Positions 9,541 through 27,037 of a DNA stretch of 64,000 bases are shown in pieces. This stretch comes from Candidatus Borrarchaeum weybense (GTDB lineage: Archaea; Asgardarchaeota; Sifarchaeia; Borrarchaeales; Borrarchaeaceae): positions 820,627-884,626 of the forward strand of contig JAHQJS010000004.1 of the NCBI GenBank assembly GCA_019057385.1. The letters are read 5' to 3'. The notes beneath the pieces are model-generated. The model saw only the letters and a program-made list of their open reading frames with translations. It searched no databases and was not told where the DNA came from. A program made the translations under genes and the position numbers. Numbering within the stretch: the first letter of the stretch is position 1; every line of letters starts with the position of its first letter.

Positions 9541-12495
9541 ATGCAACTAGGAATCTTAGGAGCAAATGTGATCGTATTAGTCATTCCCGTGATTATTGTT
9601 ATACTCGTGTTTCTTCTTTGGAAAGATAAGCGCTTAGTTAAGATGGCATTTCGCAACCTAGGGCGAAGAAAGACTCGTAATTTTCTCACTGTGGTAGGAG
9701 TGATGGCCTCTGTCAGTTTGTATGTAGCATTTAACATAGCTAGTGATAATACGTATCAAATTGTTTACAACGTGGTTGAACTTCTGGGAGGCAACGTAGA
9801 TTTCGAAGTCAGTCGAGTTGATGGTGAACCCTTTAATGAAGACCTTCTCGAGGACATCTTGCAGGTGGAGGGAGTGAAAGCAGCAGCCCCTCGGATACAG
9901 CGATATAGTGTGATCTATGTCAAAGCTGATGGAAACTCGACCACGGCAGTTGTTGTTGGCATAGATCCACAGTACGATAACGAGTTTGGAGAGCTCTTTG
10001 ATTACAACACTAGCGAATCCATCGATACCAGTGAAGTCCTTACTGGAAAGGTCGCCATAGTGAGTGAATCGCTGATGGATGGCATTAATTGGCAGGAAGA
10101 AGTCAATGATGATGAGTTTGAGATCGTCAATGCCACCGTTGGAGATAGCATGATGATTAAATACCGAGGTGGAAGCACAATAAAGAAGGAGCGTTGGGAG
10201 ATCGCCTCTTTTGCAGAAGTTACTGGTAAAGCCCAACAAGTGGGTTGGGGTTCGTGCGTCTTTATATCATTAGAAAGCGCCCAAAAGTTCTTTCCCAAGT
10301 GTAAGGGAAAGGTTGATCAGATTATAGTAGAAATGGATCCAGCGTACGGAACTGAATGGCAAGAAGTGCAGCAAAGAATTAAGGATGTAGTAGGAGAGGA
10401 TCTTGAGGTCTTTGCACCAAAACAAGCGACTTTGGAAGCTAACCAAGCTGTCATTTCATTTATTCAATTAGGTATCTTTTTCGCTGGAGCGGCAACATTG
10501 CTTGCGATGTTATTTCTGATATTTAATACAGCAAATATGACCATAGCCGAGCGTAAGTATGAAATAGGAGTCCTTCGATCCACTGGGTTTAAGAAAAGGC
10601 ATGTCTTTAGGATCTTTCTTTACGAAATTCTTGCATTCGGCATAGCGGGATCCGCAATTGGTATATTCGCCGGTATATGGCTATCAGATGGACTAACGTG
10701 GTACTTCAAAACTCTAATACAAATACCTATCGATGTGCCCTTTGAAGAGATGAAAGGCGTTGCTATTAATCCAGGATATCTCATAGAAGGTTTTGTTCTT
10801 GGCGTCATCTTCACACTACTTGGAGGCTTGTATCCGCTTTTCAGTATAACTAATTTGAACGTCATAAACGCACTGCGACCAGAAGCCCGATCAAGCAAGA
10901 AACTCACTTTGAAACATAGGATTCGATGGGTCGCTAGTGGGAGCGTACTCCTCGGTGTTGGTTTGAGTCTTATATTCGTTTTACCGTTTGTTCTGGGACT
11001 TGAAATTTCATTTCTTACGAGTATATTCCTGTTAATGGTGGCAACTGGAATAATACTCCTATTGGGTGGTCTTAAACGAAAATACCTAACGATTGGTGCA
11101 GGCGTAGTACTACTAGCAGTCGGTCTTTTTGATGTGTTCTTCGGTGGTTCAATTATTTCGATTTTTGCTCTCATGATAGGCTCTATCATCTTTACTGCAG
11201 GCATCCTCAGAGGTGTAGGAGGTGCGTTCGATTTCATCGTTGGACGTATTCCAGGGTTAAAGTATGTAAGCAATTTGGCGTCTAAGAACATAGCAAGAAA
11301 GCGGACCAGATCTACTCTTACCTTTGGAATTTTTACGATTTGTTTAGCGCTTGTAATTGCAATAGCTTCAATCATGACAGCACTCGAAATTGGAATTTTG
11401 GATTTCGTTGACCAAAGCTTAGAAGGTAACCTGATCGTTGGTACTGATGTTGGAGCACCCCCTACTCTCAGCGGAAATATTACAAGAAATATTGAAGGTA
11501 TTCACTGGGCAAATACAAGTGAAGGAATGATTCCAGCCTGCACTGTCTTGGAAGGAGCGGGTGCACGTTTCGAACTGTGGGATGAAGATTACGATTCGCT
11601 GCTTATAGGTATCAATAGCACTAATTATGTTGTCGTGAATGAACAAACTCTACCGTCTAAAATCATTGATCCAAATGGTACAGATACTTTCAAGTTATTT
11701 AAGCGACTTAAGAATCCACACGAAAATGCTTGTATCATAAGTGATAGACTTGCCTATGAACTCAATGTCAAAGTGGGACAAAAAACACCGATACAAATCT
11801 CAGCACATGGAAACACAACGGAGTTCAAAGTTATTGGGATAATGCATGAAGATTTATTCGGCTATCCGCAACCGGGTTACTTCTGCTTAATTGACATTGA
11901 TCGTTTCTATGAATTTGGCGTTGATAAAACGGTCCATACTTTCTTCATTAAATTAGACCGACGCTATATGAACGGCACAGCAGTTGATCCGCAAGTCGTG
12001 GCAGACCAGATCGACGAAAGGTGGGGCGACGAATACAAACTAGAATTTGTAATGAAAGAAGACATCAAACAGGAAGTTCACGAACAAGCCAAACAAATAG
12101 GGACATTCTTCAATATCATAACCTATTCCAGTATCGTTGTTGGCTTGCTAGTTTTGGCAACCACTATGATCAAAATAGTCAGTGAGAGACGGCGCGAAAT
12201 TGGCTTACTCCGAACAATAGGCATAAAAAAACAGGGCGTGATAATGCTTATCCTTTCTGAGTCGATATTCCTGGCTCTTATCGGGCTTTTGCTTGGGATT
12301 ATCGATGGATACATCTTAGGATATACACTTGTTCAGGCATTGGGTGACGTAGGTCCTATGCAGTTTGTAATGCCGTGGGACGCTATTGTCCAAACTACTG
12401 TAGTGGCACTCGCAATTGCAGTCATCGGTGCGATATTTCCCGCGTGGAAAGCCAGTCGGATACCTCCAGCTGAGTCATTGAGATATACAGGATAG
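9541..12495 (+). CDS. ABC transporter permease, duplicated FtsX/MacB domains
   Basis: AFRNLGRRKTR, two ER..EIG.LR..G motifs, terminal P.ESLRY. Confidence 0.92.
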   Translation: MQLGILGANVIVLVIPVIIVILVFLLWKDKRLVKMAFRNLGRRKTRNFLTVVGVMASVSLYVAFNIASDNTYQIVYNVVELLGGNVDFEVSRVDGEPFNEDLLEDILQVEGVKAAAPRIQRYSVIYVKADGNSTTAVVVGIDPQYDNEFGELFDYNTSESIDTSEVLTGKVAIVSESLMDGINWQEEVNDDEFEIVNATVGDSMMIKYRGGSTIKKERWEIASFAEVTGKAQQVGWGSCVFISLESAQKFFPKCKGKVDQIIVEMDPAYGTEWQEVQQRIKDVVGEDLEVFAPKQATLEANQAVISFIQLGIFFAGAATLLAMLFLIFNTANMTIAERKYEIGVLRSTGFKKRHVFRIFLYEILAFGIAGSAIGIFAGIWLSDGLTWYFKTLIQIPIDVPFEEMKGVAINPGYLIEGFVLGVIFTLLGGLYPLFSITNLNVINALRPEARSSKKLTLKHRIRWVASGSVLLGVGLSLIFVLPFVLGLEISFLTSIFLLMVATGIILLLGGLKRKYLTIGAGVVLLAVGLFDVFFGGSIISIFALMIGSIIFTAGILRGVGGAFDFIVGRIPGLKYVSNLASKNIARKRTRSTLTFGIFTICLALVIAIASIMTALEIGILDFVDQSLEGNLIVGTDVGAPPTLSGNITRNIEGIHWANTSEGMIPACTVLEGAGARFELWDEDYDSLLIGINSTNYVVVNEQTLPSKIIDPNGTDTFKLFKRLKNPHENACIISDRLAYELNVKVGQKTPIQISAHGNTTEFKVIGIMHEDLFGYPQPGYFCLIDIDRFYEFGVDKTVHTFFIKLDRRYMNGTAVDPQVVADQIDERWGDEYKLEFVMKEDIKQEVHEQAKQIGTFFNIITYSSIVVGLLVLATTMIKIVSERRREIGLLRTIGIKKQGVIMLILSESIFLALIGLLLGIIDGYILGYTLVQALGDVGPMQFVMPWDAIVQTTVVALAIAVIGAIFPAWKASRIPPAESLRYTG

Positions 12496-21897: not shown

Positions 21898-24255
21898 TCA
21901 TTTTTCTAATAACTTTTTCTTTGACTTAGTTACTGCAGGACAAGATGGGCAGAAATCTGTCAAAAATCTGTAGATCCGTTCAATTTCCAATGAATTAAGA
22001 TCGTAAAGCGTAAATAATAATGTATTAATTCTCTTTAGGTGGTTTTGGATATCAGAATCATTAGCGTTAGCTTCAAGAATTTTGTTAACATTTTTTACAA
22101 TTTCATCAATGATATTTTCTTCTGTTGAGGTTTCTGGTAATTTAAGGGGAAGATATCTCAGAATTTCCCTATATTTTATACTTCCTCCAGGAATTACTAA
22201 TCCCCAAAACATTGCTCGATAGTAAAATTCGGCTAATGGGGAATTTAAATAGGCCAAGGCGTATTTTGTTAAAAGATTCTCACGATCCTCATTGTATTTG
22301 TCCTTTAAAAAAAGTAGATAAAGTGTATTGAGGGCGTAAAAAAACTTTGCATGGTCTGGTTTTGAATCATCCCCACCATCATAGGCTACTGTTAGGAATT
22401 TGCTTGTATTTCTGAAAAATAGTTTTTTTCTATTAAAAATAGACGGTTTTTTGGATAGATAGAGCCTTTCATGATCTGTTTCTGGCTTATATTTAAGATA
22501 TATATGCCTCCAGTTAATTCTGTATCGATCTATATCTAAACCATCAATAATTCTTCGATGGCGTTTTTGTTGTAATGATGACAAGGATTTGTATTGTTCT
22601 TCACTGATTAGAACTAATTTTCGCGTCTCTGGGCTTCCAATTCGTATGCATTGCTCAATCTTAAAGACATCTCCCAATAAAGATACCTCATCTTCCATCT
22701 TTTTAATAATCGAATAATATTTTTTGCCTAAAAATGGAGAAAAGATGTTTTCTTGCGTCATAAAAAAGTAAGATTGGGGGAACATCATTACAATATGTTT
22801 TGGTGTTTCTTTCTCAGGAGAGGGTATAGAACTTAACGAGTGTAAATCGTTTGTCTTGAGAACAACTGAAGTTATCGGATCGACCTTTTTATTAGTCTTT
22901 GTCTTTTGAAAAATGTAAATTCCTACACTAACGTCCTGTTTAAATACTGATTCATATAATGCGAGGTTAATCATTTTTTTGATGCGACACTTTTCTAATA
23001 TGTATTCACGCAATGCTCTCCCATATCCACTATAAACCATAAAAGCGGTTGGTAAAAGAAATCCAAGCATTCCATCAGATTTTAAAAGATCGATCGATCG
23101 TTCTATAAAGAGAACATATAGATTTAGACGTCCTTTTGCAGTTCTAAATTTTTTCTGATAAGACTCTCTCTTTTCTTTTGATATTTGTGTAACACCAACG
23201 TATGGGGGATTTCCTATGATGTAATCAAAAGAATCGTCGTCAAGTCCTGATTCGGTCAGAAAATCAGAACAGAATATCGGAGTTTTAGGAAGTACGAATG
23301 ATGGTTTCTCTTGAAGAGCTTTTTTGTAATAAGGCAATAATTCGAGTACAAACCTTAGTTTTGTCATAAGACAAGAAAAGGGATAGATATCGAGACCTAA
23401 AATCTTTGAGCTATTGAATAACTCCTCTAAAACTTGAGACCATCCGAATAATTCGGCATCTTCTGTCACATCTGAGATATATCGTTTCAAAGCCTCTATT
23501 AGAAAAACTCCACTACCACATGAAGGATCTAACAGTTTCTTTTTGTTCAGTTGATTTCCTTTTAGATAACCAACACTATCTAGAATAATTTTAACTACAG
23601 ATAATGGTGTATAAAACTCTCCTAAGTTTTTTCGAATCTGTCTATCTATTATATGTTGATAAAGTTCACCAAAAATGTCAGTTTCTTGAGATAAAGATGT
23701 TTCTTCTAAGAACTTCATCATGTTACTTAAACCAGTTCTCAATTTCTCTAAATGAGATAACATTCTTTCGGGTACGGCTTTTTCGTTTTCGAATTTTTCA
23801 AAAGGTTCAAACCACCAATCGAATTGTTTTTCGTAGGGTTCACTATAGAGAAGATGAGTATCTATTTCGAAAATGAATTGCACGATATCAGTTAAAGATT
23901 GCTTTTTAGAAGCGAAAGCTGCTTGAGAAAAAGGTAATTTGTATTTCTGTGAGAAAATCGCTAGAATGGATTTGAATAACATAACCAGTAAGGTTTCAAT
24001 ACAAAAAAGTGTTTTTTGCGTACTTTCATTCTTCAAACCCACATCGTTTATTATATTTTTCCATGTGCGAGGTATTATTTTGGGTAGTTTTCCTTTGGAA
24101 TACAGTTTCCATTCAGTAAAAATGATTTGAAGTTTTTTTGAATCATAAAGATGATATTCAAACAAAGCAAGCAAAGATTGAACGACAATGTAAAAAGAAG
24201 AATCCTCTTTTAGAGCAAATATTTTTAAAACTTTGTCCTTTGCAATAGAGTCCAT
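21898..24255 (-). CDS. N6-adenine DNA methyltransferase (Eco57I/TaqI-like) with target recognition domain
   Basis: GEFYTP, LDPSCGSGVFL, IGNPPY, LAYLNS TaqI_C-like region. Confidence 0.9.
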   Translation of the reverse strand: MDSIAKDKVLKIFALKEDSSFYIVVQSLLALFEYHLYDSKKLQIIFTEWKLYSKGKLPKIIPRTWKNIINDVGLKNESTQKTLFCIETLLVMLFKSILAIFSQKYKLPFSQAAFASKKQSLTDIVQFIFEIDTHLLYSEPYEKQFDWWFEPFEKFENEKAVPERMLSHLEKLRTGLSNMMKFLEETSLSQETDIFGELYQHIIDRQIRKNLGEFYTPLSVVKIILDSVGYLKGNQLNKKKLLDPSCGSGVFLIEALKRYISDVTEDAELFGWSQVLEELFNSSKILGLDIYPFSCLMTKLRFVLELLPYYKKALQEKPSFVLPKTPIFCSDFLTESGLDDDSFDYIIGNPPYVGVTQISKEKRESYQKKFRTAKGRLNLYVLFIERSIDLLKSDGMLGFLLPTAFMVYSGYGRALREYILEKCRIKKMINLALYESVFKQDVSVGIYIFQKTKTNKKVDPITSVVLKTNDLHSLSSIPSPEKETPKHIVMMFPQSYFFMTQENIFSPFLGKKYYSIIKKMEDEVSLLGDVFKIEQCIRIGSPETRKLVLISEEQYKSLSSLQQKRHRRIIDGLDIDRYRINWRHIYLKYKPETDHERLYLSKKPSIFNRKKLFFRNTSKFLTVAYDGGDDSKPDHAKFFYALNTLYLLFLKDKYNEDRENLLTKYALAYLNSPLAEFYYRAMFWGLVIPGGSIKYREILRYLPLKLPETSTEENIIDEIVKNVNKILEANANDSDIQNHLKRINTLLFTLYDLNSLEIERIYRFLTDFCPSCPAVTKSKKKLLEK

Positions 24256-24752: not shown

Positions 24753-25135
24753 ATCTAAAAACTTGTTTGCGTTCAGATCAAGAAATCTGTATGTGCTCAA
24801 ATATATCAATATTTGAAGTTAAATTGATCCGTTATGAGCTGAACTTTAGTAAATAAGCTGGTGAAGGGTCAGCAGGTTAAATTTCGTGCAACTACGATAT
24901 TCTCCTCTTTTTCCAATTTTTAAACTCTTTAAACCTCTATTACGTGCATGAGTTATCAATTATATTATATTATATTGAACGTCAAAGTTGTATACTAATT
25001 TTAGTGGTATTCGTGATCATATAAGGTATTTTTTTATAGAAGGATTTGCAATAAAAAGCAGTATTATACTATTTTTTGATGACGAAAAAGGATGTCATGT
25101 TTCTGTAAAAATCGTTTAAGAGAATGATAGGTGAA

Positions 25136-25385
25136 GTCAATTACCCCACCCTGACGGATGGGGCTTGTTCCGTGAGGAGCAAGAGCAATTAGTTGATTAG
25201 CCTAAGAGAGGTCGTGGTAAAACATGGCGGTATCTACGTTATCAGGAGTGTTAAAGAACACACCAAGGGATGCTTCTCTAGTCCCTTGCTCTGTAAATGG
25301 TGGTTTAAACAGAGAGGAAACTCTCAGTGATCATCGTACAGTACTGACTGATAACCTTGGCGAAGAGAACCAACCTACTTTAATA
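25136..25385 (+). ncRNA. omega-RNA (HEARO-type) scaffold; guide is the 5' flank ending at 25135
   Basis: HEARO-like motifs GTCAA.TACCCC..., GTTGATTAGCCT, CTACGTT, ACACC..GGATGC..CT.AGTC, CTTGGCGAAG directly upstream of iscB; 3' end approximate. Confidence 0.85.
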
Positions 25386-25408
25386 TTCGTTAAAGGAGGA
25401 GATAGGAC

Positions 25409-26620
25409 TTGAGAGTACCTATCTATGTCTTAAACATGAGAGGGCAACCGCTCATGCCTACCACACAACCCAAAGGAAAGAAATTATTACACGAAGGCAA
25501 GGCAAAGGTTGTTCAGCGATGCCCTTTTACCATTCAGTTGAACTATGCAACCGGAGAAACCAAACAACCGATTACACTCGGATTGGACATCGGATATACG
25601 AACATCGGATTTAGTGCCAAGACCGAAAAATTAGAAGTCATCAGCGGCACGTTAATCTTACGACAAGACGTCTCTAACAAGCTAGACGAAAAACGGAGGT
25701 ACCGCAAAACTCGTAGAGGTAGACTAGGGTATCGACCACCTCGCTTTAATAACCGAACACGACCTGAAGGCTGGTTAACCCCTAGTACTCAGCATCGACT
25801 TGACTCACATATTCGATTAGTTGAAAAACTTGAAACACTGCTGCCGATCAGCTACAAGAAGGGAGAAGTGGCTAATTTCGACGCTCACAAAATGCAGCAG
25901 CCAGAAATTACAGGAGTCGCATATCAGCAGGGCACACTTCAAGGCTATGAAGTCAAAGAATATCTGTTAGACAAGTGGGGACGTGCATGTGCTTATTGTG
26001 GTAAAACAAACATCCCCTTAGAAGTCGAGCATATCGTCCCGAAAAGCCGAGGTGGAACAGACCGAGTGTCGAATTTGACGTTATCATGTAGGAAATGTAA
26101 CCTTAAAAAAGGAGATCAGACCGCCGAGGAGTTTGGCTATCCTACCATTCAGAAACAGGCAAAGCAGCCTCTTAAAGCACCGGCATGTCTGAATACTATT
26201 CGTTGGAGGATCGTGGAGCAGTTAGGGGCAGAGTATACTTACGGATACGTAACAAAATACCACCGCAATAAGTTAGGGCTGGAAAAGTCGCATGTTAATG
26301 ACGCATTTGTCATTGCCGGCGGCAAAAACCAAGAACGATGCCTACCTTATGAGGTCATGCAAGTGAGGCGTAATAATCGTTCTATACAGACGAATCGAAA
26401 GGGATTTAAACCGTCAATTAGGAGACAGAGGTATCAGTTGCAACCCCACGATGTGGTAAGCTGTAATGGAAAACCATACAAAGTCAAAGGCGTATTCAAT
26501 TATGGAAGATGGGTACGATTATGCGATTCACAGGGAGCAATCGTCAACGCCACGATCAAACACGTGGTGTTGTTGAAATACGGAAAAGGATTAGTATTTA
26601 CGTTTGAAAATAACAACTAA
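25409..26620 (+). CDS. iscB: RNA-guided endonuclease IscB
   Basis: PLMP motif, RuvC-I LGLDIG, Arg-rich RRYRKTRR bridge helix, RuvC-II E, HNH (CAYCG..EVEHIVP..N..CRKCN), RuvC-III SHVNDA. Confidence 0.96.
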   Translation: MRVPIYVLNMRGQPLMPTTQPKGKKLLHEGKAKVVQRCPFTIQLNYATGETKQPITLGLDIGYTNIGFSAKTEKLEVISGTLILRQDVSNKLDEKRRYRKTRRGRLGYRPPRFNNRTRPEGWLTPSTQHRLDSHIRLVEKLETLLPISYKKGEVANFDAHKMQQPEITGVAYQQGTLQGYEVKEYLLDKWGRACAYCGKTNIPLEVEHIVPKSRGGTDRVSNLTLSCRKCNLKKGDQTAEEFGYPTIQKQAKQPLKAPACLNTIRWRIVEQLGAEYTYGYVTKYHRNKLGLEKSHVNDAFVIAGGKNQERCLPYEVMQVRRNNRSIQTNRKGFKPSIRRQRYQLQPHDVVSCNGKPYKVKGVFNYGRWVRLCDSQGAIVNATIKHVVLLKYGKGLVFTFENNN

Positions 26621-26677
26621 AATACCGCAATTCAACTCCACCCTTGTGGATGGAGTCTTCTTGCGGAGGTGAAATAA

Positions 26678-27037
26678 ATGGATGAAGAAAATTCTAATGA
26701 AAATGAAGATAAAATGAAATATGTTAAATATGTTGAATTTTTAGATCTTGATAACATGATTAGAGCAATGGTAAGTTCTAGAGCGCCGTTACTTTTGCAT
26801 ATAGACTTTAATGGAAGGCATATATATTTCCAATCCCAACCAGGATTCAAGGAGACAATTTTTTACTATGTTGAATTACCTGAAGCAATTAATGAAAACT
26901 TTGTTGTGTATGACTTAATGACTGGAAAGATTAGTTTTTCAGACCAGCTACAAATAGACCCAAACCGGAGATCAATTCCGATCGTCGAAATATCGAAACA
27001 AAACATTTTTCCTAAGGAGATCTTAGATTCAAAGTAG
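26678..27037 (+). CDS. Conserved archaeal hypothetical protein
   Basis: 119-aa ORF whose AGGTGA SD is supplied by the IscB element end. Confidence 0.7.
   Translation: MDEENSNENEDKMKYVKYVEFLDLDNMIRAMVSSRAPLLLHIDFNGRHIYFQSQPGFKETIFYYVELPEAINENFVVYDLMTGKISFSDQLQIDPNRRSIPIVEISKQNIFPKEILDSK

Follow-up and report, generated by a model that had tools for sequence, protein, structure and literature searches.

The iscB element and its ends

The window analyzed here, a stretch of 64 kb (G000:C4:820627-884626) from a source genome of 4.18 Mb in 8 contigs, carries an iscB gene directly preceded by an omega-RNA scaffold, located between a gene for a SUI1 protein and a gene encoding 119 aa. The segment from 25136 to 26673 (+) is very probably a 1,538-bp non-autonomous transposon of the IS200/IS605 family (ISC/OMEGA) with an omega-RNA scaffold and an intact iscB, and its GC content of 44-46% compares with ~31% in the flanks. 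On the plus strand, the host flank at 25116-25135, which would become the guide segment of the omega-RNA and ends in the Shine-Dalgarno (SD) sequence AGGTGA of the host gene, is directly followed by the scaffold (25136-25374), a ribosome-binding site GGAGG (25395-25399, read from the sequence, 9 nt before the start codon), iscB itself with a TTG start (25409-26620, 403 aa) and, on the minus strand, the transposon left end (LE) in the sense of the transposase TnpA (26625-26673). Beyond the element follow the predicted target-adjacent motif (TAM) ATAAA (26674-26678, +; TTTAT on the minus strand, 5' of LE), which is host DNA and whose last A also begins the host start codon, and the host gene (26678-27037, +; 119 aa, taken from the list of open reading frames (ORFs)). 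The product of this gene had no match in Pfam or NCBIfam, and its 5' untranslated region (UTR) took the insertion.

The 403-aa product of iscB, a nuclease of the kind ancestral to Cas9, matched the Pfam domains RRXRR (1.5e-56) and HNH (4e-14) and scored 365 bits against the NCBIfam equivalog NF040563, 'RNA-guided endonuclease IscB', with a cut-off of 175. Its best PDB matches were solved IscBs (E 1e-39 to 1e-47) and IscB-like Cas9 relatives. Alignments with PDB entries and paralogs showed that the PLMP motif (residues 14-17), the RuvC residues D60 (RuvC-I), E153 (RuvC-II) and H295/D298 (RuvC-III), the HNH residues H208/N222/N231 and the zinc cysteines C194, C197, C227 and C230 are all intact, and the profile matches and residue alignment together bear out the original prediction, made from the sequence, of a 403-aa IscB with PLMP, three RuvC motifs and HNH. 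The domain order is that of an IscB in the class of ~400-500 aa, with an N-terminal PLMP motif and a RuvC fold split by the HNH insertion, a C-terminal beta-barrel and no recognition (REC) lobe. The catalytic residues are kept in nearly all of ten close paralogs, two of which carry one Cys-to-Tyr change each in the zinc site; all ten have remained open over 400-402 aa and start with the same TTG, in the context LRVPIYV. Measured against eight paralogs, the ratio of nonsynonymous to synonymous substitution rates (dN/dS) of the window iscB was 0.14-0.20 at dS 0.5-1.3, indicating that the gene is under purifying selection.

An AlphaFold2 model from a 19-sequence alignment reached a pLDDT of 53.9 and a pTM of 0.30, its usable parts being the HNH domain and the C-terminal barrel. 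Superpositions over several domains gave a root-mean-square deviation of ~15 Å and were used solely to see which chain ranges correspond. The confident C-terminal beta-barrel (~340-393, domain 340-398) aligned with Z ~7-8 to the C-terminus of both OgeuIscB (8csz_D, up to residue 493) and IsrB (8dmb_P, 259-346). Published structures have the TAM-interacting domain in this region, and the barrel is taken to be the predicted TAM-interacting domain of the window protein.

The omega-RNA scaffold lies on the same strand as iscB, directly upstream, and ends 34 nt before the iscB start. It gave a full-length match to Rfam RF02033 (HEARO; model 1-211/211) with 134.7 bits against a gathering score of 83 and an E-value of 8.5e-28 for the whole window, in which it was the only Rfam match, and it began at exactly the base, 25136, from which a HEARO-like scaffold had been predicted. 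Across 28 scaffolds of the source genome, the consensus pairs were canonical in 97% of cells and compensatory double changes occurred in 6 of the 17 recovered pairs (RNAalifold), the de novo RNAalifold consensus having regained only part of the Rfam HEARO structure.

The first stem-loop of the scaffold (25144-25163) doubles as the hairpin of the transposon right end (RE). In LE, an 18-nt linker occupies 26656-26673, the inner hairpin spans 26636-26655 and the outer stem pairs 26625-26630 with 26661-26666. DNA folding confirmed the hairpins expected at both ends, with -7.9 kcal/mol on the minus strand (z -2.4) vs. -5.3 on the plus strand for the RE hairpin and -12.8 (z -4.1) vs. -10.7 for the LE hairpin, which is nested in the outer stem. 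Both hairpins are more stable on the minus strand, as would be expected if this is the active strand of the transposase. The LE region 26625-26673 is conserved at 8 other loci of the source genome, and the spacing between hairpin and TAM is fixed at 18 nt in every subfamily. The element displays the hallmarks of the IS200/IS605 family, i.e., subterminal hairpins, no terminal inverted repeats, insertion 3' of a short motif (on the minus strand) and no target duplication.

The left boundary was placed at 25136 because the starts of all 36 scaffolds in the source genome agree (GTC/GCC-AA) while their upstream flanks are all unrelated. The 7 nt immediately 5' of the scaffold, AGGTGAA (25129-25135), are found again at the very end of the element (26667-26673), which leaves the insertion point formally ambiguous by 7 nt; it is resolved to 25136 by the 35 other copies. 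A target-site duplication was rejected as the origin of this repeat, as the other 29 copies whose right end was defined have none and the consensus of the subfamily terminus is AGGTTAG. Our best guess is that both copies of AGGTGAA are SD sequences for the same downstream gene. An alternative boundary, with insertion after TTCAC and an RE ending in ...TTGACTTCAC, was also rejected, as all 36 copies end in ...TTGAC with unrelated flanks. A repeat of the same geometry was observed in a tnpA-tnpB element of the source genome (G000:C7, ~194080-194100 and 195886-195895), in which the 10-nt ATAGACTTGG stands directly after the putative TAM at LE and directly after RE.

Empty sites and the predicted guide and target-adjacent motif

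Thirty related genomes, including the same-genus genomes G002 and G004, were searched for the flanks of the element. In G004:C63, position 13348 is the last of the left flank and 13349 the first of the separately searched right flank; in G002:C218, the two flanks are adjacent at 10800 and 10799. Both empty alleles join window position 25135 directly to 26674, the junction reading ...TTAAGAATATGATAGGTGAA/ATAAATGGATG in G004 (shorter reading ...GATAGGTGAA/ATAAATGG) and ...TTAAGAGAATAATAGGTGAA/ATAGATGAC in G002 (shorter reading ...AATAGGTGAA/ATAGATGA). In addition, a look-up of the neighboring SUI1 protein led to six environmental or NCBI places, including GCA_029856345.1, in each of which the 119-aa gene lies 307 nt after SUI1, and the five of them whose DNA was read (L116-L120) have the same empty junction. 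The empty site ...GATAGGTGAA/ATAAATG that had been predicted from the occupied locus was accordingly found as an exact junction in G004 and in L116-L120, with G002 reading ATAGA. The site is empty in all sampled relatives, so that occupied and empty alleles coexist as a polymorphism, and comparison of these alleles places the insertion after the split of this lineage from its nearest sampled relatives. As ATAAA is present in the empty site, it belongs to the target and not to the element.

The predicted location of the guide at 25116-25135 held up, as this segment lies directly 5' of the scaffold and recurs in the empty alleles; the length of 20 nt given for it was a guess, and 16-20 nt were assumed in this analysis. 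In published IscBs, the heteroduplex measures ~15 bp, and 18-nt matches were used in tests. The guide (12-20 nt) was found once in the source genome, where it is followed by GTCAAT and no TAM, so that the occupied locus should be no target and should not be cut. The predicted target is GAGAATGATAGGTGAA.

At the far (right) end, which was defined in 30 of the 36 element copies of the source genome, each subfamily shows a hairpin, the 18-nt linker and a short motif, after which similarity ends. ATAAA follows all 12 copies with the window-type terminus (...CTTGCGGAGGTTAG/ATAAA) and also both such copies in other Asgard metagenome-assembled genomes (MAGs). Two other terminus types are followed by ATGAA, ATGAG or TATGA and a fourth by GTGAA or GTGAG, and the pairing of terminus and motif is the same in other Asgard MAGs (ATAAA in L038 and L039, ATGAx in L041 and L051, GTGAA in L047 and L049). 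In a tree of 20 IscBs, the four ATAAA-flanked proteins form one clade. The 10 columns that distinguish this clade from the ATGAA and GTGAA classes all fall at window residues 363-402 (F363, N364, W368, R370, D373, S374, V379, N380, L389 and N402), which lie in the confident C-terminal barrel or directly after it.

It has been found that the TnpA and IscB of an element recognize the same motif, and the measured GstIscB TAM, TTCAT, is written 5' of LE (Meers et al., 2023, bioRxiv 10.1101/2023.03.14.532601). TTCAT equals ATGAA in IscB orientation, 3' of the target, and by the same conversion the ATAAA of the window is TTTAT 5' of LE on the minus strand. ATAAA is also the experimental TAM of IscB.m13, for which the TAM lies immediately downstream of the target (PMC13622844). 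Being part of the empty site, following all termini of the same type and co-varying with the protein clade, ATAAA at 26674-26678 has good comparative support as the TAM, in agreement with the ATAA(A) proposed originally. It is rather unlikely that the true TAM is shorter, longer or degenerate and that ATAAA reflects the target choice of the transposase alone. The comparative nature of the support, the AT-rich genome and the ATAGA of the empty G002 allele would be compatible with such a motif, but the published recognition of one motif by TnpA and IscB, the co-variation of clade and C-terminal residues with the motif and the use of ATAAA by a characterized IscB argue against it.

In the right ends of all subfamilies, Watson-Crick co-variation was also seen between positions 1 and 3 of the TAM and the first and fourth nucleotides after the hairpin foot, respectively (TCTTC-ATAAA, TCTCC-ATGAA, CTTCC-GTGAA). 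This is reminiscent of the DNA-guided recognition of the cleavage site in IS608, for which three or four classes constitute weak evidence.

Related elements, a candidate transposase and alternative explanations

The source genome contains 36 HEARO matches, 28 of them above the gathering score and none scoring higher than the window scaffold, together with 16 RRXRR (IscB/IsrB) matches and a single Y1 TnpA. Full-length elements measure ~1,530-1,545 bp, and ~20 protein-less elements of ~360-415 bp have retained scaffold and far end. All five genomes of the genus have HEARO matches (36, 37, 5, 12 and 9), which occurred only sporadically in the further families searched within the phylum.

Two further kinds of related sequence were observed in the source genome. 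The first is a second, distant RRXRR family (~26% aa identity) that is IsrB-like in being devoid of the HNH histidine, the asparagines and the zinc cysteines (G000:C8:112429-113149 (-), C6:254078-254801 (-), C4:509707-510439 (+) and C6:820629-821363 (-)). Each of these copies has a weaker HEARO upstream (56-98 bits), and ATGAA stands after the terminus in three of the four, the far end of the C4 copy being undefined. The second is a minimal element of ~46 nt (G000:C7:~90575-90640 (-)) with neither scaffold nor gene, which reads GTCAATTACCCCACCCTGACGGATGG/AGTCTTCTTGCAGAGGTTAG and then ATAAA and in which the hairpin of the omega-RNA end is fused to the linker of the far end, as if by recombination between the two end hairpins.

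As had been noted from its sequence, the window element has no tnpA of its own, and a search of the genome for this gene identified the sole Y1 tnpA elsewhere, at G000:C7:194191-194619. Its product matched the NCBIfam IS200/IS605 transposase model with 132 bits, and a gene for a 427-aa TnpB follows it. The RE of this tnpA element (...AGCCCCATCCTTCAGGGTGGGGTAGTTCAC) and the omega-RNA-end hairpin of the window element on the minus strand (...AGCCCCATCCGTCAGGGTGGGGTAATTGAC) match at 24 of 25 nt. A search of the window LE against the tnpA locus gave nothing significant, the RE hairpin being the only match between the two. The genome has 41 TnpB-type hits (PF07282), and several TnpB-type elements close with the same hairpin as the IscB elements (...GGGGTAGTTCAC vs. 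...GGGGTAATTGAC). In earlier work, iscB was found to adjoin tnpA rarely (~1.5%), the HEARO/omega-RNA upstream of iscB was found to be bounded by the transposon RE, and a single TnpA was shown experimentally to serve IscB-type, TnpB-type and protein-less elements in Geobacillus (Meers et al., 2023). From the shared hairpin it is plausible that the genomic TnpA acts as transposase in trans for the window element, and one TnpA may serve all three kinds of element in this genome too.

Several observations weigh against this interpretation of the locus. Between the tnpA element and the window element, the left-end hairpins show no more than loose similarity, with the same architecture and unlike sequences. 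The nearest paralog in the source genome is only 86% identical in DNA and the host flanks differ by 5-10% from the nearest empty allele, which together place the source copy outside this assembly and permit no inference of recent activity for the window copy. Finally, the AlphaFold model is poor overall (mean pLDDT 54), and the domain assignment of residues 363-402 therefore rests on the Z-score of ~7-8 and the position in the chain.

In an alternative reading, the element is an immobile relic, i.e., a fixed insertion with a disused iscB and omega-RNA, the ORF of which is intact merely because it is young. The distance to the nearest paralog and the presence of only one tnpA in the genome, outside the element, would fit such a relic, as would the degraded members of the family, among which one has an internal TGA, another is truncated to 367-368 aa and ~20 have no protein gene. 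However, the low dN/dS of iscB over the observed range of dS and the ten paralogous ORFs that are still open would not be expected without selection on the protein; the undiminished score of the scaffold and the empty site in all sampled relatives also argue against a relic, which we regard as very unlikely. Co-option of IscB and omega-RNA by the host, e.g., for defence or gene regulation, instead of maintenance of a transposon is hardly credible: the 36 scaffolds, with as many different guides, might in principle be directed at other targets and a third of the copies lie in 5' UTRs of host genes, but the window copy has the neighboring host flank as its guide, for which there is no other match in the genome, and two intact transposon ends at an insertion that is polymorphic among relatives represent the standard selfish architecture. 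The non-autonomous transposon at 25136-26673 is apparently a working copy, for which RNA-guided, TAM-dependent double-strand cleavage is predicted.

A mechanism for this transposon can be proposed from Altae-Tran 2021, as cited in the papers used here, and from Meers et al. (2023), who argued that IscB omega-RNAs depend on outside transcription. Transcription would enter from the host DNA upstream, probably via the promoter of the interrupted gene, and the transcript would begin with the host flank as guide and continue through the scaffold into the iscB mRNA. IscB would bind the omega-RNA, forming a ribonucleoprotein. Upon seamless excision of the element by the single genomic TnpA, the rejoined site GATAGGTGAA/ATAAA would offer guide target and TAM, and IscB would cut this donor site by its HNH and RuvC domains, followed by recombinational restoration of the element. 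The occupied locus, with GTCAAT in place of a TAM after the guide, would be spared.

With regard to the host, the closest IscBs (71-85% aa identity) are from MAGs of Candidatus Borrarchaeum yapensis, Borrarchaeota archaeon Yap75.bin3.45, Sifarchaeum marinoarchaea and a Promethearchaeota archaeon, followed by a Heimdallarchaeota MAG at 66% and by Methanoperedens and a few bacteria at no more than 60%. The source genome encodes two full-length actin homologs (Pfam Actin, 455 bits), at C4:895388-896497 (-), on the same contig 11 kb past the end of the window, and at C5:134969-136078 (-). Profilin gave no match anywhere, controls included, which made this search uninformative, and actin was used as the marker of Asgard affiliation instead. 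By its closest IscBs and its actins, the host, called 'Asgard-like' originally, is a Borrarchaeota-like Asgard archaeon.

Upstream of the element, the SUI1-iscB intergenic region harbors an AT-rich insertion of ~87 nt (window 24934-25021) that belongs to no Rfam family and is missing in the G004 allele. A copy with 74% identity is located at G000:C6:905096-905176, ~300 nt from the closest IscB paralog, and more copies occur in G001 and G003; the insertion may be a small mobile element. Just upstream of SUI1, a 785-aa ORF (window 21898-24255 (-)), orthologs of which carry N6_Mtase, Eco57I and TaqI_C domains, resembles a type IIG/IIL restriction-modification fusion.

Start-codon placement and relation to known systems

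In 10 of the 30 copies of the source genome whose far end was defined, a co-oriented ORF of 119-853 aa is opened by an ATG that lies within the TAM (ATGAA) or at most 11 nt beyond it, and in the reconstructed empty sites none of these ORFs has an upstream frame that stays open for more than 8 codons. For the same 5-mers, 1.6% would be expected genome-wide and 7.0% at non-genic sites (binomial p 3e-11 and 2e-5, respectively). The left flanks of the 10 copies end in SD-like sequences, and GAGGT or GGAGGT stands in the element terminus 4-9 nt ahead of the ATG, examples being window 26656-26680, G000:C3:137099 (-), C6:825499 (-) and C7:540666 (+). The window copy, inserted 4 nt upstream of the start codon of the 119-aa gene, is the clearest case, with AGGTGAA-ATAA-ATG in the empty and GGAGGTGAA-ATAA-ATG in the occupied allele. 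On the plus strand, its LE linker carries the SD-like GGAGGTGA 4 nt before the host ATG, which is created by two substitutions in the terminus.

We tentatively consider, as a possibility that is more doubtful than not, that the IscB elements of this Asgard lineage are adapted to host 5' UTRs by landing between SD and ATG, borrowing the host promoter for guide, omega-RNA and iscB mRNA and donating a ribosome-binding site from their conserved terminus. In this scenario, the landing site would follow from the overlap of the TAMs (ATGAA, or ATAAA with TG after it) with the start-codon context. The fragmented congener G001 showed the pattern in only 1 of its 10 definable copies, and start-codon placement is therefore reported as a lead and not as a finding, with no claim to generality. 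A literature search at the level of titles and abstracts found no prior description of IscB elements placed at start codons or SD sequences, which is not proof of novelty. The placement with a donated ribosome-binding site is the only possibly new biology at this locus. If true, the replacement ribosome-binding site would make the insertion nearly harmless to the host gene.

In other respects the element resembles systems that have been described. OgeuIscB (PDB 7UTN, 7XHT, 8CSZ) has the same domain order and catalytic residues (phmmer E ~1e-39), and its HNH and C-terminal domains align structurally with those of the window protein; however, it comprises 496 aa vs. 403 aa, and only the first ~326 window residues align by sequence. 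The published TAM of OgeuIscB differs from ATAAA. The scaffold, as a full-length match well above the gathering score, shows nothing notably different from Rfam RF02033. IscB.m13 has the same TAM, ATAAA, and an omega-RNA scaffold of 211 nt, but comprises 481 aa vs. 403 aa (PMC13622844).

The GstIscB element of Geobacillus stearothermophilus (ISGst family; Meers et al., 2023) is alike in being a non-autonomous IS200/IS605 element with HEARO upstream of iscB and bounded by RE, in its flank-derived guide, in a TAM equal to the TnpA motif, in its dependence on TnpA in trans and in the coexistence of protein-less derivatives. Its TAM TTCAT is the ATGAA of the sister subfamilies described here, read on the other strand, whereas the window motif is ATAAA; the present system differs also in its Asgard archaeal host and in that a third of the copies in the source genome lie between host SD and start codon. 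Stand-alone omega-RNAs and PATE-like derivatives are likewise known (Meers et al., 2023), and the ~20 elements of 360-415 bp in this genome share scaffold and ends without iscB, the window copy being the full-length coding form. IscB-HEARO systems are already known in archaea. The window copy is a clean, full-length and ordinary member of a described family, and the understanding of OMEGA systems is unchanged by it.

The value of the locus lies in the fact that boundaries, guide, empty target, motif and candidate transposase are all readable from genomes alone, which extends well-documented OMEGA biology to a Borrarchaeota-like Asgard archaeon, in a genus with dozens of copies. It provides a compact 403-aa IscB with a predicted ATAAA TAM whose sister clades (ATGAA, GTGAA) differ only at residues 363-402, and the ATAAA, ATGAA and GTGAA clades represent a natural experiment for TAM engineering.

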